The notes under the pieces are model-generated. The model searched no databases, was not told the DNA's origin, and saw nothing but the letters and a program-made list of their open reading frames with translations. From a virus (lineage: Duplodnaviria > Caudoviricetes), in the IMG/VR virus record IMGVR_UViG_3300019872_000004, positions 1-45,045 of that record: 45,045 bases of DNA. One strand, written 5' to 3'. The translations under genes were made by a program, and so were the position numbers. Positions 1 through 45,045 of this stretch are shown one piece after another (the first letter of the stretch is position 1; every line of letters starts with the position of its first letter).

Positions 1-117
1 AAAAGGGCTTGAAGTCTGTTTTGAGGCCGAACCCATACAGGAGCGGTGGGAAAAAGAAGGCCAGAAACACAGCGCGGTGAAATTCGTTGTTGACGGATGG
101 GTTCGAATACTCGCACC
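1..117. repeat. Terminal direct repeat, copy 1 (circularisation overlap with 44909-45025)
   Basis: Bases 1-117 are identical to 44909-45025. Confidence 0.95.
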
Positions 118-163
118 GGATACGAACGAGCCAGCGCAGACGGCGGACGATTCGCCGTTTTGA
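1..163 (+). CDS. ssb: 3' part of single-stranded DNA-binding protein (continues from 44718 across the junction)
   Basis: Hand translation ...KGLEVCFEAEPIQERWEKEGQKHSAVKFVVDGWVRILAPDTNEPAQTADDSPF*; acidic DDSPF tail typical of SSB. Confidence 0.85.
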   Translation, partial: KGLEVCFEAEPIQERWEKEGQKHSAVKFVVDGWVRILAPDTNEPAQTADDSPF

Positions 164-175
164 AAGGGGAAATAA

Positions 176-364
176 ATGATCGATATCAAACAAGCATCCG
201 CAATTCTCGGCGTCGACGACGCCAGCGCACGTATCGTGCTGAGGTTCTTCAAGGTCAGGACTGAAAAGTCAGAGGTCGCGGTTGTCGGGAAACTTAAACC
301 GAAGGCTAAGAACCTGTACGACGAAAATCAAGTCCGGGAAATCGCCGGACTCCGAAAATACTGA
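176..364 (+). CDS. Small putative DNA-binding (excisionase/HTH-like) protein
   Basis: RBS-like AAGGGGA upstream; N-terminus MIDIKQASAILGVD resembles HTH starts. Confidence 0.5.
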   Translation: MIDIKQASAILGVDDASARIVLRFFKVRTEKSEVAVVGKLKPKAKNLYDENQVREIAGLRKY

Positions 365-368
365 ATAT

Positions 369-393
369 GCCGCCTTAGGGCGGCTTTATTTTT
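369..393 (+). terminator. Rho-independent terminator
   Basis: GCCGCC-TTAG-GGCGGC stem-loop followed by TTTATTTTT just after the 176-364 stop. Confidence 0.75.
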
Positions 394-405
394 GACAAAG
401 AAAAG

Positions 406-639
406 ATGAAGCGATTTATAGCGTTCGTTTTTTGGACCGCCGCATGGTGGTGGATGATTACAATTATCATCAACATGGGCGCGCCGCCAATGCCGGAAGA
501 ACCGAAGTTTCCTACGCCAAAAACATGGGACGAAAGACACCCCGATGGCTGGTCAGAATGGGGGAACGAAAAACGAGAGGCAGTGCCAGTTATAAAATGG
601 CCTGAGGAAAATAGCGTTAATGTGAAACCAAACCTATAA
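406..639 (+). CDS. Hypothetical membrane protein
   Basis: N-terminal hydrophobic segment then Pro-rich tail. Confidence 0.45.
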   Translation: MKRFIAFVFWTAAWWWMITIIINMGAPPMPEEPKFPTPKTWDERHPDGWSEWGNEKREAVPVIKWPEENSVNVKPNL

Positions 640-1207
640 AAAGCCCTATTGCGAGGGCTGCACCGCCTACAACAATGCCTAAAATAATTTTATCATTTTG
701 AAGCGCTTGAATTGTTTTGCTCACTTCGCTTTTGTACTGCTCGTATGATGTCCAAAGCGCTTCGCGCGCTGTCGTCAACGCGTCTCGTTCCCCCAATAAT
801 TCCGTCAATGAGTCCTGAGCTATCGTCAACTGACTGTTTGAGTTTTGCAAATCGAGTAGCAAGGTCTGTATATGATTTTCCAAGCCCTGCGATTGCTGTA
901 GTAAGTCCGCGTGCTTCTGTTCGAGTTGTGCCAAGTTCGTTTGCAATTCGGTCGCGGTCGACAATGACAAGGTATAATTGTGCTTCAACGTCTCTAAAGT
1001 CGCGGTCGTTTTTTCGTTCTCTTGCAGAATATTCGTTAAACAATCTTGTAAAATCTTTATCTCTTCGATCGATATCTGATAAATCGGCATGGGGGCCGAG
1101 TAAGGATTTTTGGACTGTATCGAATCCCCTACCAATCCAACCTGCGCCGAAACCGATAATGGAAGCAACGATGATAAACAAAAACTTAAAAATATTTTTT
1201 TGCACAT
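617..1207 (-). CDS. Putative spanin-like protein (signal peptide, coiled coil, C-terminal TM)
   Basis: ATG overlaps holin stop (TAATG); signal-peptide-like N-terminus ending VSA; heptad-rich middle; C-terminal IILGIVVGGAALAIGLFIGLV; last gene of lysis cassette. Confidence 0.55.
   Translation of the reverse strand: MCKKIFLSFCLSSLLPLSVSAQVGLVGDSIQSKNPYSAPMPIYQISIEEIKILQDCLTNILQENEKTTATLETLKHNYTLSLSTATELQTNLAQLEQKHADLLQQSQGLENHIQTLLLDLQNSNSQLTIAQDSLTELLGERDALTTAREALWTSYEQYKSEVSKTIQALQNDKIILGIVVGGAALAIGLFIGLVSH
693..1205 (-). CDS. Putative i-spanin (Rz-like), nested in 617-1207 in another frame
   Basis: GTG start after GGGGGAG RBS; N-terminal TM FLFIIVASIIGFGAGWIG then long charged coiled coil; downstream of holin/endolysin. 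Confidence 0.6.
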   Translation of the reverse strand: MQKNIFKFLFIIVASIIGFGAGWIGRGFDTVQKSLLGPHADLSDIDRRDKDFTRLFNEYSARERKNDRDFRDVEAQLYLVIVDRDRIANELGTTRTEARGLTTAIAGLGKSYTDLATRFAKLKQSVDDSSGLIDGIIGGTRRVDDSARSALDIIRAVQKRSEQNNSSASK

Positions 1208-1473
1208 TACTCCCCCTTGGCTTTATCCGCGATTTCTTTCAAGTCCTGAGCGCTAATATACCCGCCGGTCACGAGCGCGTGAACTACACCGAGTGCCGAT
1301 AGACCGCCACCTGCTGCGAACGGCCACCACTGATTTACGTTAAAAATAATAGCGATTACACTGCATACAAAGCCCAAAAAAACAAGCGCCGATGAAAACC
1401 ATATATACATAACGCGCTTGCTCGAAACACTTTTATCGCTGTTTTGTACAGCGGATATTTTTTCGTCACTCAT
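1207..1473 (-). CDS. Holin-like protein (two TM segments)
   Basis: Start MSDEK at ATGA overlap with amidase stop and AAAGGA RBS; SSKR motif then two hydrophobic helices; adjacent to endolysin. Confidence 0.7.
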   Translation of the reverse strand: MSDEKISAVQNSDKSVSSKRVMYIWFSSALVFLGFVCSVIAIIFNVNQWWPFAAGGGLSALGVVHALVTGGYISAQDLKEIADKAKGE

Positions 1474-2054
1474 GATATTCCTTTCGTTAGGTCGGCGAGT
1501 AATGCTGACCAATCCTCTACATATAGATTGTACCAATGCGGGCAATCTTTGTAGCCAACAATATCCTTGTGCCGATACCAGTCGGCGGCTTTTAAGCCGT
1601 ACTGTTTCGAATATCTAATCATGAGCAAAAGTAACGATGCACGAGCGGCTGTCGTTGGAAAACCTTCCCACGTTTCATGTTCGAATTCTATGCCGATTAA
1701 AATAGAATTCGGTGATTTATGTTGATAATCAAGCGTAAAGTCAGGCCATTTTCTGCGGGCTATGTCTGTGTAATATTGTTCAGAACCCTGATAAATCGGG
1801 GACGTCGCGCCACAATGATAGGCAATTTCGTTCGAAGGAACGCAATGTAAGACCGAACCGTCTCGATCAACAATATCATGCGCTGATCCATACCCATTTG
1901 AGCCGTTCTCGCGATCTGCCCAGTATTTCCTTGTATCCGATGCAGATTGCATAGGTTTAGCGGTCCAGTGAATGACGCCGCCAAGAGTTTTTTGTCGAAC
2001 TGTTCCTGGTCGTATAAATTTGCTTATGGGTAAGAAATCGTTTTTTTCTGTCAT
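1470..2054 (-). CDS. Endolysin, N-acetylmuramoyl-L-alanine amidase (Amidase_2 type)
   Basis: Motifs IHWTA, SAHDIVD, AYHCG, IGIE, RHKD..KDCP. Confidence 0.9.
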   Translation of the reverse strand: MTEKNDFLPISKFIRPGTVRQKTLGGVIHWTAKPMQSASDTRKYWADRENGSNGYGSAHDIVDRDGSVLHCVPSNEIAYHCGATSPIYQGSEQYYTDIARRKWPDFTLDYQHKSPNSILIGIEFEHETWEGFPTTAARASLLLLMIRYSKQYGLKAADWYRHKDIVGYKDCPHWYNLYVEDWSALLADLTKGIS

Positions 2055-2497
2055 TTAATCACCGACAAAAGTACACCACCGATGCCAATTATGCTTGTGA
2101 TAATAAGCCCCCATTTCATCCAAGAATTGTTTGAAAGTTTTTCCACAATTAAAGCTGTTGTTTTTAAGCTATCTATATCGCTTTGCTGTATTCCATTTTC
2201 AACACTCAATTTTTCTATCTTAGCATCAAATTCAAGCCTTAGCTTTTCTGCGCGTTGTTCGATTTCTATTCGAACAGCTCTACCCATGTCATTTATTGTA
2301 TCTGTCTGTTTTCTCAATAATTCGTAAAGATCTTTGTAAGTGTCTCTCGTATTAGCTGCGTTCGTTTGAACTAAAGTTGATAAGACGGAAATTTGATCTT
2401 TTATGCCAGAGATAAGCGGAAGCAAACCGGCCTCCACATGCTTCGATATTCGTTCGATATCATCCAATTTTATTACAATTTCAGCCATGCTAATCAC
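2051..2497 (-). CDS. Coiled-coil protein with C-terminal TM (lysis-associated, holin/XhlA-like)
   Basis: Coiled coil plus WGLIITSIIGIGGVLLSVI; coupled to endolysin start. Confidence 0.55.
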   Translation of the reverse strand: MISMAEIVIKLDDIERISKHVEAGLLPLISGIKDQISVLSTLVQTNAANTRDTYKDLYELLRKQTDTINDMGRAVRIEIEQRAEKLRLEFDAKIEKLSVENGIQQSDIDSLKTTALIVEKLSNNSWMKWGLIITSIIGIGGVLLSVIK

Positions 2498-3599
2498 CTA
2501 TTCTTTCTATTCTCACATAGCAGAGTGTCGTTGCGTTTCCGATAGCGCCTTCGACGTGGGGCCTAATTACGTCGCCAACTTTAAGTCTTCTAATTATACT
2601 GCCTGCTGGTGGATAAGTGGTCCCAAGTGCATTTAAAAAAAGCGCCAATCTATTAGCCGCTGTTATCGTTGAAATTGCCGTTGTAAGTTGGGTTGAATTT
2701 ATACTAAAACCATATCCCAAAGGCGCTGTTGAGTCAGCATCTGCATACTCCAAAACATATCTACCGTCCATATTTATGGTAAAAACACTTCCGTTTGCGG
2801 CGCTTGTTGCGTGTGTCACCGCCGTGCCTGGACCGATATTTGTTGTATTAGTAATGCGACGAATTCTGGTGTCTGTGCTTCCTCGACCGTTTCCAGTGTC
2901 AGCTATTACGCCGTTTTCTATCTGTATTCGAGCACTATTTGTGACTGTAACCTGTACAATAGCGCTGGTCCATGTGCCAGGAGTGGCTTGATTGCTAACA
3001 AAAAACCCTAAGTACCTGATTGCGATATTGGATCTCGCAGTAGTAGAGTACAAAGTCGTTTTGCTATCAGCAGCTCCCGCACCACCTTCGGCAGTGGTCG
3101 TTTGTAAATCAGCCTCGCTAAATGTATTGCTGCTACTCCATGCGAGTTCCACAGTGCCAGCATTATCAATTGCGAACAAATGTACATTTTCGTTTTTTGC
3201 GGCAAAATGCCCTGCTGTACTACCCGAGCTTATAACGGTAGACAAAGCCGCAGTAACAGTTCGAAACACAGTTGCGCCACTCGTCAGCGTCGATGACCGA
3301 AACGCGATTATGACTTTTTTATCTGAGGTGCTACCAGGATCCGTAGCTCCATCTTTTTGTTTCAAAGAAATAGTTAGCCCATTTGTCGGAGTATTAGCCA
3401 CGACAGAAAGTCCAATGTTTGAAAGCAATTTAGCATCATATGCAAGCGCTTGGACAATTTCTTTAAACTTAGCTCCTGTCATTTTTTCGTATAAAAAACT
3501 TCCTCCGCCTTGGTCTGCGTCTACAACTAAAAATGATGTATCTAAAATGTCTGTAGCAGTTATAACTACATCTTTTATTCGAGTTCTTGTCAGGGCCAT
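2490..3599 (-). CDS. Tail fibre / receptor-binding protein
   Basis: Thr/Ser/Gly/Ala-rich beta-strand composition; last gene of the tail block. Confidence 0.65.
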   Translation of the reverse strand: MALTRTRIKDVVITATDILDTSFLVVDADQGGGSFLYEKMTGAKFKEIVQALAYDAKLLSNIGLSVVANTPTNGLTISLKQKDGATDPGSTSDKKVIIAFRSSTLTSGATVFRTVTAALSTVISSGSTAGHFAAKNENVHLFAIDNAGTVELAWSSSNTFSEADLQTTTAEGGAGAADSKTTLYSTTARSNIAIRYLGFFVSNQATPGTWTSAIVQVTVTNSARIQIENGVIADTGNGRGSTDTRIRRITNTTNIGPGTAVTHATSAANGSVFTINMDGRYVLEYADADSTAPLGYGFSINSTQLTTAISTITAANRLALFLNALGTTYPPAGSIIRRLKVGDVIRPHVEGAIGNATTLCYVRIERIGD

Positions 3600-19060: not shown

Positions 19061-19101
19061 CGTTCCATGATAAAATATTTTGATAAATGTTGCGATACGT
19101 G

Positions 19102-19130: not shown

Positions 19131-19170
19131 ATATACATGGTGATTGAGAGATTGCCGTAAGGAGTTTCAA

Positions 19171-19335
19171 ATGAACGCAGCCGAAATTATCGAACGATCG
19201 CAGACTAAGAAAGACTTTTCTAACCAGGAATGGCAGAACGGATTTGTGCACGGCGTTGACGGAACATCTCCGCGTAGAGAAACCGAGGAATACAAAAACG
19301 GTTACGCTCACGGATGCATGGCCGACACCGAATAA
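19171..19335 (+). CDS. Hypothetical protein (island 2)
   Basis: TAAGGAG RBS. Confidence 0.55.
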   Translation: MNAAEIIERSQTKKDFSNQEWQNGFVHGVDGTSPRRETEEYKNGYAHGCMADTE

Positions 19336-19405
19336 GCCGAAATGGTGATAGCAGCTCTTCGGAGCTGTAAACCGCAAGCCCCGTCTAAAGCCGAGGGCAA
19401 AAAGG

Positions 19406-19654
19406 ATGGAAAGAATGACCAGGAAATACAAGTGGACAGTAGAAATAACTGTTGACGAAACATGGGTAGCCGACGGCTTTGATCTACAAGATGGGCAGGA
19501 CGTAGCCGAGCGCCTGAAGGCTGGTATCTTATCCTACGCGACAAATGGTGAATTCACCGCGCGTGTTAAGACGGGCCCGGTCCGCGAACTTGTCGCAAAA
19601 GTACAAGGGTTTGATAGTGTTTACGCCATGGACAGTTCGAATAAAGGAAATTGA
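19406..19654 (+). CDS. Hypothetical protein (island 2)
   Basis: ORF with WTVEITVDETWVADGFDL, typical of small phage early proteins. Confidence 0.6.
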   Translation: MERMTRKYKWTVEITVDETWVADGFDLQDGQDVAERLKAGILSYATNGEFTARVKTGPVRELVAKVQGFDSVYAMDSSNKGN

Positions 19655-19740
19655 ATAAGCCGAAACGGGGTTCCCGCGCCCCGTCTGTGAGACCTGATCT
19701 ACTCACACTGAGGATGGCAGATCACAAAGGAGGATTGAGG

Positions 19741-19878
19741 ATGAAACGATGGGAAATAACAATCTATACCGAATGTGAAGCGGAAACCTACGATGAGGCT
19801 GTCGATAAAGCGCGTGCTTTGGCTGATGAGTTATCTGAACACGCGGTGTATGGATCGGTTGAGGAGGCCGAAGAATGA
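19741..19878 (+). CDS. Hypothetical protein (island 2)
   Basis: AGGAGG RBS before ATG 19741. Confidence 0.5.
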   Translation: MKRWEITIYTECEAETYDEAVDKARALADELSEHAVYGSVEEAEE

Positions 19879-20175
19879 AAATTGAAATATACCGCCGAGC
19901 GCGGTCGGTAACATCAAGTTTTTGTATACGTAAATCGGAGCGTGTTCTTACAGAAGGCGGCTATAAATGGTCGCACTACACGTGGCTGTTTTGTAACATT
20001 ATCACCGGGAGGAAGGAGAAATCATGAGTACAGCGTTACTTATCATATGGCCACTGTGCCAATACAGTTTACAAGATGATGGATTCGGGAATCTTGTACC
20101 TGATTGTAACTGGACAGCCGCTTTTTATTTTGCCTACGGGGCGCTAAACAGCTATGAAATGCCGGAGGTGAAAAA

Positions 20176-20406
20176 TTGAAAGTTTCCTTCGACGGAATCA
20201 GAAAGAACATTGCCCGGTCGTATAACGAGGTTGTACGCTGTTTTGTTGACGAAAGCGAGCAAGAAACAGAAGAAGCTCTTATGGAACTCCGGCAAAGATT
20301 GCGAGCCCTAATGGCTTGTTATGATCCAGAAAAGCAGCCGGAAGATTTCAACGATCTCGACGACATTATTATATTAACGAGTCTTCGGGATGACATAGAT
20401 GATTAA
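20176..20406 (+). CDS. Hypothetical protein (island 2)
   Basis: GGAGGT RBS and TTG start. Confidence 0.55.
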   Translation: MKVSFDGIRKNIARSYNEVVRCFVDESEQETEEALMELRQRLRALMACYDPEKQPEDFNDLDDIIILTSLRDDIDD

Positions 20407-20556
20407 ACCGCAGATCGAAAGGAGAAAGAAAATGTATGACTACATATTGAGAATGTTGGCTCACTGCGAAGCCGAATTGAAGCGAGCTGAATCAGAACGT
20501 AACCCGGTGCTTATCAACTACTATACCGCGAGGATTGAGGAGATGGAGGAAAACCG

Positions 20557-20955
20557 ATGAAAAAGATTGAGGTTCCAAACAGCGATATTATTAGCCAATG
20601 GTATTATAGCATTCCAGGCGGCTACAGTAAAAAGCTTGAATTCTACGACGTTTACACACGAGGTGTAAAGGCTGGCATTGACCACGCAAACGAGCAGCTT
20701 GCCGATACCACCAACGCCACATGGCAACCCACCCCCGATATGGTATGCGCGTTTTGGGGCGGTGGGCCCCAATGGGCCCACGCAACAAGCGTTTTTATCT
20801 ATAGAAAAACAGATGATGGTATCTACGTAGGTTGTATTAACGTTGGCGGAGCTAGGGAATTTATTTTTACCGGCGAACACGTAGCAGAACTCGATACCAT
20901 CGACGAAATCGGTAAACCGCCGAGTTATTTCATAGCTCGCGGCCGCTCAGCTTAA
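20557..20955 (+). CDS. Hypothetical protein (island 2)
   Basis: GGAGG RBS; converges on 20947-21441. Confidence 0.55.
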   Translation: MKKIEVPNSDIISQWYYSIPGGYSKKLEFYDVYTRGVKAGIDHANEQLADTTNATWQPTPDMVCAFWGGGPQWAHATSVFIYRKTDDGIYVGCINVGGAREFIFTGEHVAELDTIDEIGKPPSYFIARGRSA

Positions 20956-21441
20956 CCCATTCCCGACCCGACGCTTAACAACATTCTCCGGGTACTCGCC
21001 CCATTCAAAATCAACACCAGCGCCTTCAACGCTGGTGACTTTTATTCCACGCGCCGTAGCGATTCCGGCGAAGTACGCCATACTCTCCCGCTGCGCGAGC
21101 TGACCCGACGTGAGGCAGTCGCAACCGTTGACCATTATTTCGTTCACACCGAGTTCGATTGCGTGGCACATCATCCAGGCAGACGAGGAGCCGAAGACAC
21201 GGCCCCACCGTTTCAAATATTCATCCCGCGGCATTATAACTGCGCCAAGCAAACCCATATACGGGTACATGAGCCACGTCTGTGATGTGTTCGGCAACCA
21301 GTGCTCAACGAACTTATGCAAACTGAATATGAGGTCGTTAGACCGCCACGCCTTCGGCTCGGCGGTTGAGATCCACCACGTTTGATATTCAGGGTTCGGC
21401 GGCCGATGGTTCGGACCTCTTCCTACGATTTCAATTCGCAC
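20947..21441 (-). CDS. Uncharacterised Rossmann-like protein (Maf/sialyltransferase-like pattern)
   Basis: IEIVGRGP N-terminus and SSAWMMCHAIELGVNEIMVNGCD motif; overlaps portal stop. Confidence 0.5.
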   Translation of the reverse strand: MRIEIVGRGPNHRPPNPEYQTWWISTAEPKAWRSNDLIFSLHKFVEHWLPNTSQTWLMYPYMGLLGAVIMPRDEYLKRWGRVFGSSSAWMMCHAIELGVNEIMVNGCDCLTSGQLAQRESMAYFAGIATARGIKVTSVEGAGVDFEWGEYPENVVKRRVGNGLS

Positions 21442-22795
21442 CAGCAGCGTCCAAAGCGTCGATATACGTCGCTGTCAAAAATTGCTTGTATTTCGCGCCA
21501 CGATTCCATTGAGCTTCAAATATTTTGAAATCATTCTCGGTCGCGCTCGGATATTGCTGCAAAAATACCTTATGTACGAATTCCATTGGGGCGCCTGTTC
21601 CGATAAGAGCCGCGACCGAGGTAGCGAACCGTTCGAATATCTGCGACTTTGTATCCTCGCTCAACGCGCTCAATTCATCCCATGTAGTCGTAATGTCGTC
21701 TGATCGGACGACGCGCATCGAAGCAACGCCCTTGAGTATCAACGAATACCGGTACAGCGTCCGCCATGAGTCGGTATGCTGGCTCTGTTTTTTCTTGCAG
21801 AACTTGACGAGTATAGACATTTGTTCTTCGGCGCTTGCGTGGTTGCCGGTCGTTACGAGGCCCCAGCAGATTTCAGGGATCCCGGAGCCCTGTGGAAGAT
21901 TGTAGTAGGTGAGGTTCAAGAATTTCTCAAACTCTTCACCAGCGCCTTGCAAGAAAACAACTTCGGTCGACTCTTTATCTTTAAGGTTTATAACAAAGTC
22001 ACGCTGACCAATATCGAAATCAGAAAAGCTTGTTATATTATTTGTCTTTTTCCATTCTTCAACGTCTTGCGTTTCCTGGATCCACTTTGGCCTGAACTTA
22101 GACAGAGTTTCTGCCCAGTTCAGTTTTACATCGTGGTACGATTTCAAATCGGGGATTATTCTCTCGAGATCAGAATGACCTCGACGGCCCTCGCCATTTA
22201 TAAACGGCACCGGCATGATGCCGAACTGGTTCCTGAATGTTTCCGTAGGTAGCGATCCGCCGTAGCTGAAAACGACGCGATCCGGCTTGAATGATCTTTT
22301 GCGGTCGATAGTCCGTATGTCGTTCTCGGCAAACTTGTAGCTTATCTGCTCGGTAAAAATGACTTCCGTTATCTCTCCGGTCTTGAGGTCTTCGATAATG
22401 TCTGAGCACGAATCATCCGGTATTTCTTCCCATCGCAAGCGCCCGCCGGATATGGATGGATAAACCCAAACCGAACCACTGACATGTGATTCTGTGTGAA
22501 TGGCATCGAACCTGTTTTGAAACTGCTCGGTTATCTCGTCTATGACGTCCTGCGCGGTCTCGCTTGTTACAACTGGCCAGCCCATAAAAGCGACAGGCGT
22601 CGCGATTGGAGCATACGCGAGAGCGCCCGCGAGTTTGAAACCAGGATACGAATTGTGGAAAATGCCGCGAGCAAGGACGCCGTTTACTTTTATAGAATTC
22701 GTGAAATCAACTACGTTCGGGCGGCGCTCTATGGTTGTGACTGGATTGTGTGCGTCTTGATTCTGTTTCGAACGAAACCAACTAAATAAAGCCAT
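21431..22795 (-). CDS. Portal protein
   Basis: 454 aa between terminase and minor head genes; GHSDLERII and SGIPEICWG patterns. Confidence 0.75.
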   Translation of the reverse strand: MALFSWFRSKQNQDAHNPVTTIERRPNVVDFTNSIKVNGVLARGIFHNSYPGFKLAGALAYAPIATPVAFMGWPVVTSETAQDVIDEITEQFQNRFDAIHTESHVSGSVWVYPSISGGRLRWEEIPDDSCSDIIEDLKTGEITEVIFTEQISYKFAENDIRTIDRKRSFKPDRVVFSYGGSLPTETFRNQFGIMPVPFINGEGRRGHSDLERIIPDLKSYHDVKLNWAETLSKFRPKWIQETQDVEEWKKTNNITSFSDFDIGQRDFVINLKDKESTEVVFLQGAGEEFEKFLNLTYYNLPQGSGIPEICWGLVTTGNHASAEEQMSILVKFCKKKQSQHTDSWRTLYRYSLILKGVASMRVVRSDDITTTWDELSALSEDTKSQIFERFATSVAALIGTGAPMEFVHKVFLQQYPSATENDFKIFEAQWNRGAKYKQFLTATYIDALDAAGAN

Positions 22796-22828: not shown

Positions 22829-23494
22829 CTACCGGGCGTGAATTCTGTTTAAAATATCAGGATAATATTCTCACTCCCATTCTGTTCTTCCGAAACCATC
22901 GGCAGTAGATCCGGCAAGACTATGTGTTCTGATCTTATCTCTCGGCCATCTGCCGCCGCCGAGATAGCCATAGACAGGACAAAGCGGTAATTCATTTTGA
23001 TGGATATAGGCGAATATTTCTTGATTTTTCCAAAGAGAAAGCGGCCTGAAAGAAAAGTTGGATTCAAAACGGTACATTTTGTAAATCATAAGCCGCCTAC
23101 CCGATTCATCGTTACGAATACCTGTCATGCGATGACCGGAATATTTTTTTGCAACCGCCTTCCAATGTTTATCGCCTTTTCTAACTTCTGCATAATCGCA
23201 ACATTCCTCATGATAATCAATATTGAATCTCTCCAAGAATTCGCAGTCTGGGTTATGTCGATCATTGAATTTCACATAGACAAAAGGTATTTTTTGACCC
23301 GCCATAATCGACAGATGCATGAGCACAACGGAGTCTTTGCCCCAAGAAGTATAGGCTACTCCGTCGGTTCGCCAACTTTTGATAAGTGCTATGCTTTGTT
23401 TGGCATGCGAAACCGTTGATGCATTGTCCATATCCTCATAGTCCCGCCAAAGTTCGAGGTCTTCCGGTTTGTGCCTGTCAGTTACTATCAACAT
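22829..23494 (-). pseudogene. cysH: PAPS-reductase-family (CysH-like) protein of the type IV-B CRISPR-associated kind, with in-frame TGA near the C-terminus (ORF to 22871, read-through to 22829)
   Basis: SWGKDS PP-loop, TGIRNDES, RPLSLW..QEIFAYI...LPLCPVY; after GRTEWE* the frame continues EYYPDILNRIHAR*. Confidence 0.7.
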
Positions 23495-23649
23495 GGTATA
23501 GCAATCTCCTTAAAAGTCCCTGGATGCCAGTACGGTGGGAATGCTCCACCGAATCCCCTACGATAACCCGTCATATTTTGACAGTCCGCCCCACAGTAGT
23601 AGCAAACGAATGAACCTGAATCTAAAGTAAAAATCGAACTTGCAGTCAT
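23488..23649 (-). pseudogene. 53-aa Csf1(N)-Csf3(C)-like fusion remnant (not in ORF track)
   Basis: Hand translation MTASSIFTLDSGSFVCYYCGADCQNMTGYRRGFGGAFPPYWHPGTFKEIAIPC*; ATGA overlap upstream, overlaps cysH start downstream. Confidence 0.6.
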
Positions 23650-23870
23650 TCCGTGGACTTCTTTCGTTCCTCAACAGCGCGCCTATTATGACGCTGCGAG
23701 TTCGCCCGTCTGCATCCTGAAGAATACGCGACGAGAAAATCCGGGAAACTCATGTCACCGCGTTTTTTAAGTGCTGCGCGCGGGCGATTGGCATATCCGC
23801 ATTCGCCTATAGGTCCGTCCGACTGGCTGTACGAAAAATCGTTAGCCATGAAGTTTCTGCTCTCGCTCAT
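23646..23870 (-). CDS. Hypothetical protein (island 3)
   Basis: ATGA-coupled ORF. Confidence 0.5.
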   Translation of the reverse strand: MSESRNFMANDFSYSQSDGPIGECGYANRPRAALKKRGDMSFPDFLVAYSSGCRRANSQRHNRRAVEERKKSTE

Positions 23871-24058: not shown

Positions 24059-24281
24059 AAGCGATTCTCCTCTCTGCCTTCTTGGCCACTCGTTTCAGAT
24101 TCCGGTTCTGAAACCGAATGAACTCCGAAATTTTTGTCTCTCGCCATTTTGCCAAATATTTAGGACCACGAAGCCGTACCCAGAATCCCGGCTTGAGCTT
24201 CGCTGTATACTCGTCGAATTGTTTACGCGCGAGTTCTGATAACTGGCCACGAAGTGCTCGGAGCGCTCGTTTGATTTTCAT
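24042..24281 (-). CDS. Basic hypothetical protein (island 3)
   Basis: ATGA-coupled ORF. Confidence 0.5.
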   Translation of the reverse strand: MKIKRALRALRGQLSELARKQFDEYTAKLKPGFWVRLRGPKYLAKWRETKISEFIRFQNRNLKRVAKKAERRIAYARKN

Positions 24282-24919
24282 ACTATGCCAAATTCCTTAC
24301 ATTTTTTTGTTATCAACCTGTTTAATTCTGGCCACAAAACAACTTCTCTGATTATTTGACAATGTTTTGCCCACGAAGCAGCCCGATAAGCAGCCCGCGA
24401 AGAAGCCCGCGAAGCAGCCCACGAAGCAGCCCACGAAGCCCGATAAGCAGCCCGATAAGCAGCCCGATAAGCAGCCCGCGAAGCAGACCACGAAGCGGCC
24501 TCCGAAGCCCACGAAGCAGCCCGATAAGCAGCCCGCGAAGAAGCCCGCGAAGCAGCCCACGAAGCGGCCTCCGAAGCAGCCCGATAAGCAGACCGGCGCT
24601 CTGCTATACTTATGTCCTCGCCCATTGCATATCGTTCGGTTATCAAAAAAGGAGCTTTCGCATCTTCGGGCAAGATATCGAATACCGTTTTACTCCCGTC
24701 AATCATCGTTTCGCGAACGCACCGGACCGCTATTAAGGTCAATTTTCTCTGGTTATTATACCCTGTTTTTTCAAGCAGCCAGCACATCCAGTCCGGTCGA
24801 GCAAATTCAAACCATGCCTCTTTTAGGCTGACAAACTGTGTTACAAATTCCATGCCATCTGCACAGGCTATAGGGTTGGCGAATCTCTTATCTATCAGTA
24901 ATCGAAAATGTTTGTGCAT
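24278..24919 (-). CDS. Phage protein with Ala-rich AAxR/AASW repeat tract
   Basis: ACADG, RPDWMCWLL and AVRCVR motifs followed by tetrapeptide repeats; AAAGGA RBS; first gene after promoter. Confidence 0.7.
   Translation of the reverse strand: MHKHFRLLIDKRFANPIACADGMEFVTQFVSLKEAWFEFARPDWMCWLLEKTGYNNQRKLTLIAVRCVRETMIDGSKTVFDILPEDAKAPFLITERYAMGEDISIAERRSAYRAASEAASWAASRASSRAAYRAASWASEAASWSASRAAYRAAYRAAYRASWAASWAASRASSRAAYRAASWAKHCQIIREVVLWPELNRLITKKCKEFGIV
24369..24590. repeat. Degenerate 12-bp tandem repeat (about 19 units, e.g. GCCCGATAAGCA / GCCCACGAAGCA)
   Basis: Directly visible; encodes AAYR/AASW/AASR units on the minus strand. Confidence 0.9.
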
Positions 24920-24939: not shown

Positions 24940-24968
24940 ACTGTACACCTAAATACACATACTGTCAA
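24940..24968 (-). promoter_or_regulatory. Sigma70-type promoter with conserved GTGTA spacer motif
   Basis: Minus strand TTGACA-gtat-GTGTA...TG-TACAGT, 17-nt spacer; heads island 3. Confidence 0.7.
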
Positions 24969-26317
24969 CCATATCTCGCGCCTATTTCTTTCCTGCTCTG
25001 TTCTGATATTTTCACCCGGTTTTTCGGCTGATATAAAGCGAGAAGTGTCGCGTCTGCTTTGTCCGGCGATTTTCCATGACGTTTCTTATATTCCTTCTTT
25101 GGCTCGATCTTTCTTTGATTTTTAGTGGTGTAATCGAAAAGCCTGTTCGTCAACTGCGCCATTAGTTCTATATCGTCGAAAAGCTCAAGCTCTGGATCAT
25201 CAAGGGGGAAATCGAACCATTGTTCATCAGCGACCGTGGTGTATTTGTCCTGGTCGTCCGCAGGCATTCCGTTTCGCACAGGTATAACGTTCGCGCCGAA
25301 CTGAAACCGGAGATAGTCCGTCACGCCGCCGCCTACCCCGTCGTCGTCGACTTTTATAGGAATCGATTTATCCCGTCCTGCGGCGTACCACGCACGATTT
25401 GCCGTCCTGATAATGTCCTGCTGTACAAACTCATCAAGCGCCGTTTGCCTCATGCCCTGAAATACCGAAATTATTGTCTTATCATCGCCGAATCGCGCCA
25501 CGTCTACACCGACCTGTTTCAAGCCGCCGGTTTTTCCTGACCGGCGCTCCATGGCTCGGCGTATGAGCACGCGAGACATAACCGCGTTTTGACCTTTCTT
25601 CCGAGGCTGCCCGCCGTATACATGTTCCCACAGATCAGCGTCGACAAGTTTCATTTTGTCAGATAACTTTTGAGCCGCGGAATTCCACCACGGGTTGTCA
25701 AGGCCCTCGGGCCGCATGTCCAGCAAAAGAGCGTCGGGGTCGTTCGAATATGGGATCCAAACCTTTTCAGCTATAGGATCAATTTCTGTTTCGGGGTTAT
25801 ATGCGAAAAACAGCCGCGCGCCGGCGGCTTTCCCGAGTAGCGGCAGCAATACGTCAAGCGAGTCGCCCGCGATAGTAGCAGCCTCATCGAGCAAAAAACG
25901 GTCGAAACCTTGCAAGCCCTTCGTATTCCTCGCGGCCCTCATATCCTTCAAACCCTTGAAAATCCATTTCGACCCGGCTGGTGACTCACAATACCCTTGG
26001 GACCGTGGAAACTTCCAACCCGGGTACCGAAGCTTGTCTACAGCTTCCTCAACGGCTTGATACAGCGATTCTTCAAGCGAGTCTTGAATCTCACGCAGAC
26101 ACGCTACACGGTGAAATTCCCGGTTTGACTCCTGAACGTTAAGCGATACCATACCCGTCGTCTTTGCGCCGGCAGATCGCCCGCCTCGCGCGCCAATGAT
26201 GTTGCCCTTGAAATTCCTAGCGAGTTCCATTTTCGGGCTCACCCGCTCCCGGTCCTCCTGCTCAAGCAGTTCGAGCAGTTCCGTTTCTGCCGCCACTCGG
26301 TCCAATATTTTTGTCAT
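24965..26317 (-). CDS. terL: Terminase large subunit
   Basis: GGRSAGAKT Walker A, CLREIQDSL, LLDEA Walker B, GVDVARFGDDKT and SPDKADA nuclease motifs. Confidence 0.95.
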   Translation of the reverse strand: MTKILDRVAAETELLELLEQEDRERVSPKMELARNFKGNIIGARGGRSAGAKTTGMVSLNVQESNREFHRVACLREIQDSLEESLYQAVEEAVDKLRYPGWKFPRSQGYCESPAGSKWIFKGLKDMRAARNTKGLQGFDRFLLDEAATIAGDSLDVLLPLLGKAAGARLFFAYNPETEIDPIAEKVWIPYSNDPDALLLDMRPEGLDNPWWNSAAQKLSDKMKLVDADLWEHVYGGQPRKKGQNAVMSRVLIRRAMERRSGKTGGLKQVGVDVARFGDDKTIISVFQGMRQTALDEFVQQDIIRTANRAWYAAGRDKSIPIKVDDDGVGGGVTDYLRFQFGANVIPVRNGMPADDQDKYTTVADEQWFDFPLDDPELELFDDIELMAQLTNRLFDYTTKNQRKIEPKKEYKKRHGKSPDKADATLLALYQPKNRVKISEQSRKEIGARYG

Positions 26318-44717: not shown

Positions 44718-45025
44718 ATGCAAGGCTGGATTTGCACGGACCCGGAAGTTAAAGACGTCGGCGGAAAGACCGTCATACGATTTCAACTTTCGGTGTCAGC
44801 GAAATACAAGAAAGACGGCGACAAAAAATGGAAGTCGTTTTTCAGCATCGATTATTGGCCGGTCGACCGCGTGGCCGGCAACGTACAAAGGGAGGTAGCG
44901 AAGCTCAGAAAAGGGCTTGAAGTCTGTTTTGAGGCCGAACCCATACAGGAGCGGTGGGAAAAAGAAGGCCAGAAACACAGCGCGGTGAAATTCGTTGTTG
45001 ACGGATGGGTTCGAATACTCGCACC
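44718..45025 (+). CDS. ssb: Single-stranded DNA-binding protein, 5' part (continues at 118-163; 117 aa total)
   Basis: AAGGAG RBS; MQGWICTDPEVKDVGGKTVIRFQLSV...LRKGLEVCFEAE..QERWEKEGQKHS OB-fold pattern. Confidence 0.85.
44909..45025. repeat. Terminal direct repeat, copy 2
   Basis: Identical to 1-117. Confidence 0.95.
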
Positions 45026-45045
45026 CATCCGTCAACAACGAATTT

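Follow-up and report, generated by a model that had tools for sequence, protein, structure and literature searches.

A minus-strand open reading frame (ORF) of 53 aa at 23488..23649 joins the beginning of Csf1 to the end of Csf3, and we read it, with a probability of about 0.82, as a scar without function, left when one deletion cut a type IV-B CRISPR-Cas operon carried by the phage. It lies in a stretch of 45,045 nucleotides (the window), a 45-kb tailed-phage record that encodes TerS, TerL, portal, Clp protease, and tape measure proteins. The ORF is present from 23649 to 23488, with exactly the peptide quoted by an earlier reading made from the letters alone (the sequence-only reading). Its ATG shares an ATGA with the TGA of a 74-aa ORF upstream (23646..23870, minus strand), and its final 7 nt overlap the start of a cysH-like gene at 23494; this coupling and this overlap had both been described correctly. 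The same 7-nt overlap between csf3 and cysH is seen in two relatives, L022 and L029. The locus sits between terL (24965-26317) and portal (21431..22795, minus strand), and the peptide is likely translated.

Both ends of the peptide were assigned with PADLOC and with profiles of our own. Against the 5,027 PADLOC models, the 53-aa peptide gave three matches, all to type IV Cas8 or Cas5 and weak taken alone. Residues 2-26 aligned with positions 3-30 of the 213-position typeIV_Cas8 model (E 0.006), while residues 19-53 and 22-53 aligned with two typeIV_Cas5 models (E 0.007 and 0.018) and reached the last model position, in one case as positions 195-228 of 228. Because these matches were weak alone, we gathered relatives through cysH for profiles of our own: 16 viral, 58 metagenomic, and 8 genomic loci, the window's own contig among the metagenomic ones being left out. 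Genes upstream of the relatives' cysH gave strong PADLOC matches to type IV Cas8, Cas11, Cas7, and Cas5, and matched the NCBIfam Csf1-3 models under the model cut-offs. The resulting profiles (21 Csf1, 22 Cas11, 39 Csf2, and 46 Csf3 rows) were run on the window's 1,592 six-frame segments. The fusion ORF ranked top with the Csf1 profile (positions 4-32 of 262, E 4e-5; runner-up E 1.0) and again with the Csf3 profile (positions 200-232 of 232, E 8e-11; runner-up E 1.4). Neither cas11 nor csf2 was matched among the same 1,592 segments (best E 2.3 with the Cas11 profile and 4.3 with the Csf2 profile). The N-terminal half is Csf1/Cas8 and the C-terminal half is Csf3/Cas5, as the sequence-only reading had proposed. 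Pfam and NCBIfam held no match for the peptide, and one unnamed PHROGs family matches its C-terminus.

We then delimited the two parts. The csf1 remnant consists of codons 1-23 (23581..23649, minus strand) and keeps only one of the zinc finger's CxxC pairs, the first; the second, present in 18 of 21 Csf1 sequences, is deleted. In type IV-A, the N-terminal zinc-finger domain of Csf1 is described as reading the PAM together with Cas5 (PMC11519345). Residues 1-20 score 25.8 bits on a Csf1 N-terminal profile, a score equaled by 0 of 1,000 shuffles. The csf3 remnant consists of the last 34 codons (23488..23592, minus strand). Within it cysH has both its ribosome-binding site and its start, with AAGGAG preceding the cysH ATG. 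This tail shows no decay of its own: it keeps 10 of 10 invariant columns of the Csf3 alignment and is 88% identical to a Csf3 fragment (P0002) over residues 20-53. Since Csf3 of L001 likewise matches from residue 20, and Csf1 of L024 is identical at residues 17-23, we place the join in codons 20-23 (23581..23592, minus strand), a zone compatible with both parents. The split had been put at residue 25/26; the fusion of two halves stands, but the join lies slightly upstream of that point.

The distance between the two parts is known from intact relatives. In L001, L002, and L003, the two halves match where csf1 starts and where csf3 ends, ~2.6-2.7 kb apart, and the codons equivalent to the junction are 2,629 nt apart in L001. 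Every test that was run upheld the proposal that, in a type IV-B operon, a single in-frame deletion set the 5' end of csf1 onto the csf3 3' end. A single deletion of ~2.6 kb would have removed the rest of csf1, cas11, csf2, and most of csf3. It may have run between short look-alike stretches (G-x-D/E-C codons) found in both csf1 and csf3; a deletion across such a short shared stretch is probably the simplest mechanism, and the parent sequence would be needed to show microhomology. Exact shared runs on the junction diagonal measured 1-7 nt in intact relatives (17 loci, then 14, some of them mis-anchored), and no universal DNA hotspot was found at the junction among those compared.

The cysH-like gene that follows (22829..23494, minus strand) is broken. 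Its 207-aa product belongs to the PAPS-reductase family (PF01507, E 1.6e-14), and the gene is 54-62% identical to the cysH of intact operons. First, it carries an in-frame gap of 5 codons after residue 85, in a block that is filled in 119 of 119 homologues (V 99%, R 93%, and D 92%). Second, its N-terminal region is ~5 codons short, with a spacing of 48 as against 52-54 in 50 of the 51 measured. Third, a TGA at 22873-22871 stops it fourteen codons ahead of the natural stop. The frame past this TGA still encodes the conserved C-terminal motif, and the E-Y-Y lost beyond it is 96-99% conserved in the 119 homologues; TGA terminates ordinary genes of this genome. Lesions of cysH are also carried by P0003, on another contig.

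With cysH broken and the Csf1 zinc finger halved, decay is the best reading of the locus. The sequence-only reading had left the choice between a decaying relic and a retained Cas mimic; the cysH lesions, which it did not report, and the lack of a 53-aa family favor the relic, and the mimic is favored less. Without a Csf complex, cysH would have lost its job and started to decay. The frame has probably been kept open since an in-frame join would let ribosomes continue along the coupled transcript toward portal, in which case the open frame would not be owed to any action of the peptide, which is expected to lack structure and to be inert. The fusion and cysH together show three deletions, all of them in frame, and a single, late stop, a pattern that would fit a filter for translation toward portal and not for protein function. 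The numbers are thin, with only three in-frame deletions and one late stop, and a separate collapse in another locus (L081) is out of frame, which runs counter to the argument. Three further points weigh against a scar: a second fusion in the same register (P0128), the undecayed tail, and a junction bridged only by the likely source sample.

The sequence-only reading had suggested that relatives could have the complete system here. L089 (portal 80%, TerS 72%), the phage relative nearest to the window, has homologues of the window's 79-, 63-, and 74-aa ORFs, the last of them 44% identical and directly adjoining portal, with no cassette at the site; no Csf3 match was found in the L089 record, which is 78% complete. 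The 74-aa ORF is thus an upstream neighbor outside the cassette. The spacer from the preceding stop to the portal start is 33 nt in both the window and L089, so the cassette fills exactly the gap between two phage genes. Neither csf nor cysH was found in any of 14 portal-related viral loci (1.3-8 kb upstream of portal). More distant phages bear the expectation out in part: L024 (portal 27%) has the order csf1-cas11-csf2-csf3-HTH-cysH-portal, and L030 (portal 39%) has the 3' end of the operon directly ahead of portal, as csf3 tail-x-cysH-portal. Intact operons are the rule elsewhere. With duplicates included, 28 of 32 cysH-anchored loci with at least 4 kb upstream have csf1, csf2, and csf3, and the other 4 of 32 have csf2 and csf3 at full length. 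Of 20 viral loci that the Csf3 tail recovered, 16 have all four genes and 4 are cut by contig ends.

A sigma-70-like promoter motif (24940..24969, minus strand; score 10/12) follows terL. Three similar copies lie elsewhere in the genome (3 pattern matches, where 0.07 were expected), and the motif would drive a transcription unit of ORF213-79-63-74-fusion-cysH. The sequence-only reading had placed the fusion behind a conserved phage promoter; the site at 24969 (-) stands four ORFs and 1.3 kb upstream, and what was shown of it is repetition within this genome. The four copies lie at 19101(+), 27408(+), 34102(+), and 24969(-); that at 19101 faces a plus-strand island (~19144-20955) within the minus-strand head gene block.

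The alternative that survives best, which we consider improbable, takes the fusion for a selected, zinc-bound mini-protein that imitates the complex at its Csf1/Csf3 end. In this small module, the Csf1 CxxC pair would combine with two residues of the Csf3 tail, a conserved His and the terminal Cys, and the module would poison a type IV (or type I) complex of a rival or of the host, in the manner of AcrIB3 and AcrIB4. The case for it draws on P0128, a 63-aa sequence, one of 15 matches in 1.84 billion representatives, in which Csf1 through CxxCG is joined to the last 33 residues of Csf3. P0128 has the register of the fusion ORF (17 residues from CxxCG to PPYWH), keeps C, C, H, and C, and arose independently, from another Csf3 clade. 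The tails of P0128 and the fusion ORF are identical at 12 of 33 residues, versus 26 of 33 and 29 of 33 with different intact Csf3 sequences (L019 and P0002, respectively). In a tree of 34 columns, whose support values are rough, P0128 fell in a 99/99 clade without the fusion ORF, and the two fusions were joined in 0% of 200 bootstrap trees. With uniform breakpoints, the chance of the same register is 0.7-34% for an assumed number of 50-3,000 scars. WH...PC is kept in 28 of 46 Csf3, and a promoter-like site precedes the ORF, which is coupled to the gene upstream of it.

Several observations count against such a protein. P0128 could be found only through the register of both halves, its tail alone giving E 2.3, and the search selects for that register: only 11 of 46 intact Csf3 would pass. 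Only one such sequence was found, on a contig of 1,445 nt, and the join is seen in none of the 20 viral loci anchored by the Csf3 tail. AlphaFold gave no confident fold for the 53-aa peptide (mean pLDDT 44.6, pTM 0.18), a weak result from a 10-row alignment without metal, and the neighboring cysH is in decay. P0128 is the one result against plain decay, discounted for search selection, single sequence, and chance. The broader claim, that IV-B operons were repeatedly reduced in the same register to a 50-60-residue zinc-knuckle Cas-mimic inhibitor kept by phages, we find similarly doubtful. If it were true, an anti-CRISPR born in a single deletion would have been caught twice in unrelated lineages, and selection of the same-register fusion would show how a Cas operon can yield a small inhibitor in one step. 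It would also point at, and map, the Csf1-Csf3 interface of IV-B; Csf1 and Csf3 were left unresolved in the cryo-EM map of the IV-B structure as published (PMC8175902), and the solved Csf1 and Csf3 relatives are from IV-A only.

The precedent for a Cas-derived inhibitor is given by AcrIB3 (Cas5-like) and AcrIB4 (the C-terminal 90 aa of Cas8b), which are reported as Cas-derived, tested inhibitors (10.1101/2023.06.24.545427). Like them, the fusion is carried by a phage and is homologous to part of a Cas protein, with no working locus around it. Unlike them, it has no family: 45 and 49 homologues in clades of their own are reported for AcrIB3 and AcrIB4, whereas the fusion peptide has one independent look-alike in the 1.84 billion representatives and no homologue clade of its own.

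Collapses of type IV-B operons have arisen more than once, and we found three other independent ones: L081, P0136, and P0128. In L081 (1843-2601), csf1 codons 1-169 are joined out of frame to the 3' end of cysH, and no Csf3 match was found in that genome. In P0136 (152 aa), the distal part of Csf1 continues in frame into the final 64 residues of Csf3. The junctions of L081 and P0136 both differ from that of the fusion ORF. A promoter motif like that of the window follows the collapsed csf1 of L081 (2587-2617).

Searches for the 53-aa peptide itself returned little. No short homologue (29-93 aa) was found by a word search, the Atlas gave no match, and tblastn of the peptide gave none in phage and plasmid records. 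In the phylum of G002, 0 of 168 genomes matched, in a scan with no positive control. Scanning viral contigs with single proteins for cysH plus portal found nothing; alignments were needed. Several candidates were rejected. A degenerate CxxCG...PPYW pattern matched viral contigs twice, both times in a non-coding frame of another gene, and P0128 as a query recovered intact Csf3 loci (L085 and L086) and two unrelated stretches. L117, an apparent longer match, is intact; P0124 is a repeat protein and a false match, and the profile table omits P0132 and P0134, likely repeat proteins of the same kind. P0130 belongs, as a truncated member, to a full Csf3 cluster, and P0131 lacks a Csf1 part.

We also weighed the chance that the assembler collapsed an intact operon, or merged two strains, at 23581-23592. 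Two separately assembled runs (X1 and X2) cross the junction in single contigs, unchanged, at a depth of ~10. X1 and X2 come from one sample, perhaps the source, and a second sample lacks the bridge: its X3 contigs, ~150 nt long, cover 23417-23571 and 23589-23739 and leave a gap at 23572-23588. This second sample shows no differences on either side, and no run compared has a joint or loose end at the junction. The possible shared stretch of ~12 nt would be too short for a repeat collapse. The lesions of cysH are independent ones and occur also in P0003, and csf2 and cas11 are nowhere else in the genome. Mis-assembly is unlikely, with a score we set very low, on spanning contigs that come only from the probable source sample. 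Least credible is the view that csf3 alone, by its 3' end, accounts for the entire ORF and that the resemblance to Csf1 is chance. This view starts from a likeness of residues 5-15 to a stretch ahead of the Csf3 tail and from tblastn alignments in which some Csf3 sequences match residues 5-53 over their full length (42% in L024 and 50% in L001), and it is in large part refuted by a match that begins at the Csf1 start codon, by the score of residues 1-20 on a Csf3 pre-tail profile (-1.3, with 231 of 1,000 shuffles as high, against the 25.8 bits on Csf1), and by residues 1-15, which are cysteine-free and still score 7.1 on the Csf1 profile (3 of 1,000 shuffles).

Read as a scar, the locus can be set beside known type IV systems. 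Subtype IV-B comprises csf1-3, cas11, and a cysH-like gene without an array, as described for the Csf complex of Mycobacterium sp. JS623 (PMC8175902; 10.1101/780106). The window resembles it in the remnant order csf1...csf3-cysH, in having no array, and in its place on a mobile element, here a virus record with terminase, portal, and tape measure genes. It differs in lacking cas11, csf2, more than 90% of csf1 (only codons 1-23 remain), and ~85% of csf3 (only the last 34 codons remain), and in that the adjacent cysH-like gene is broken. No CRISPR array was found among the 20 largest of at least 60 repeat families, Rfam and tRNA searches of the window gave no match, and the 34 proteins scanned had no Pfam match to Cas6 or DinG. 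With cas11 and csf2 absent, a Csf2/Cas11 ribonucleoprotein filament cannot form from this genome, nor can any complex be built from what remains, and the window is not a functional IV-B locus. In subtype IV-E, whole Csf3 and Csf1 are reported as fused, in the order Csf3-Csf1, in a working locus (10.1101/780106). The window likewise has Csf1 and Csf3 sequence in one chain, but as 23 + 34 residues, in the opposite order, and from a deletion; the PADLOC model of the IV-E fusion (PDLC01726, 479 positions) did not match the 53-aa peptide. Fuxiviridae are described as archaeal viruses that carry a type IV-B system, a cysH-like gene, a complete operon, and a mini-array (PMC10848311). They share with the window type IV-B genes and a cysH-like gene on a virus, whereas the window holds a collapsed remnant in a tailed phage. 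The literature searched, which takes in few subscription papers, held nothing relevant on IV-B remnants or a Csf1-Csf3 mini-fusion, though supplementary locus tables may list some.

As a scar, the ORF would provide one clean case for phages gaining and shedding the IV-B cassette as a unit. L089 (empty), the window (scar), and L024 (full) would form a natural series of full, scar, and absent states, drawn from distant phages. The scar would also add a case in which loss of the Csf genes is followed by decay of cysH, supporting the idea that cysH works only with the complex.

Some further features of the record and its relatives were seen along the way. The left and right ends of the window share a 117-nt terminal direct repeat (1-117 / 44909-45025), which marks the assembly as circular; the right end (44988-45045) also has a hairpin-like inverted repeat of 27 nt, possibly an assembly artefact. 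A 213-aa ORF at 24278-24919 (minus strand) contains an 18-copy tandem repeat of 9-12 nt (24345-24613), where one X2 contig skips 138 nt. Directly after portal, at 20947-21441 (minus strand), lies a 164-aa ORF that is 76% identical in L089 and has no Pfam or PHROGs match. The terL of L089 (4637-6124) has no tblastn match to the window's TerL despite the common TerS and portal, a terminase swap. In this clade, a small HTH-like gene often lies between csf3 and cysH (L024:2738-3007, L002:3998-4264, and L105:4099-4365, with weak Pfam matches), and the window has none between its csf3 remnant and cysH. In L105 (4099-5630), the intact csf1-cas11-csf2-csf3 is followed by the HTH gene and then by a radical SAM gene (PF04055), behind which the last 18 codons of cysH remain in another frame; the PF04055 gene appears to have taken over the position of cysH.
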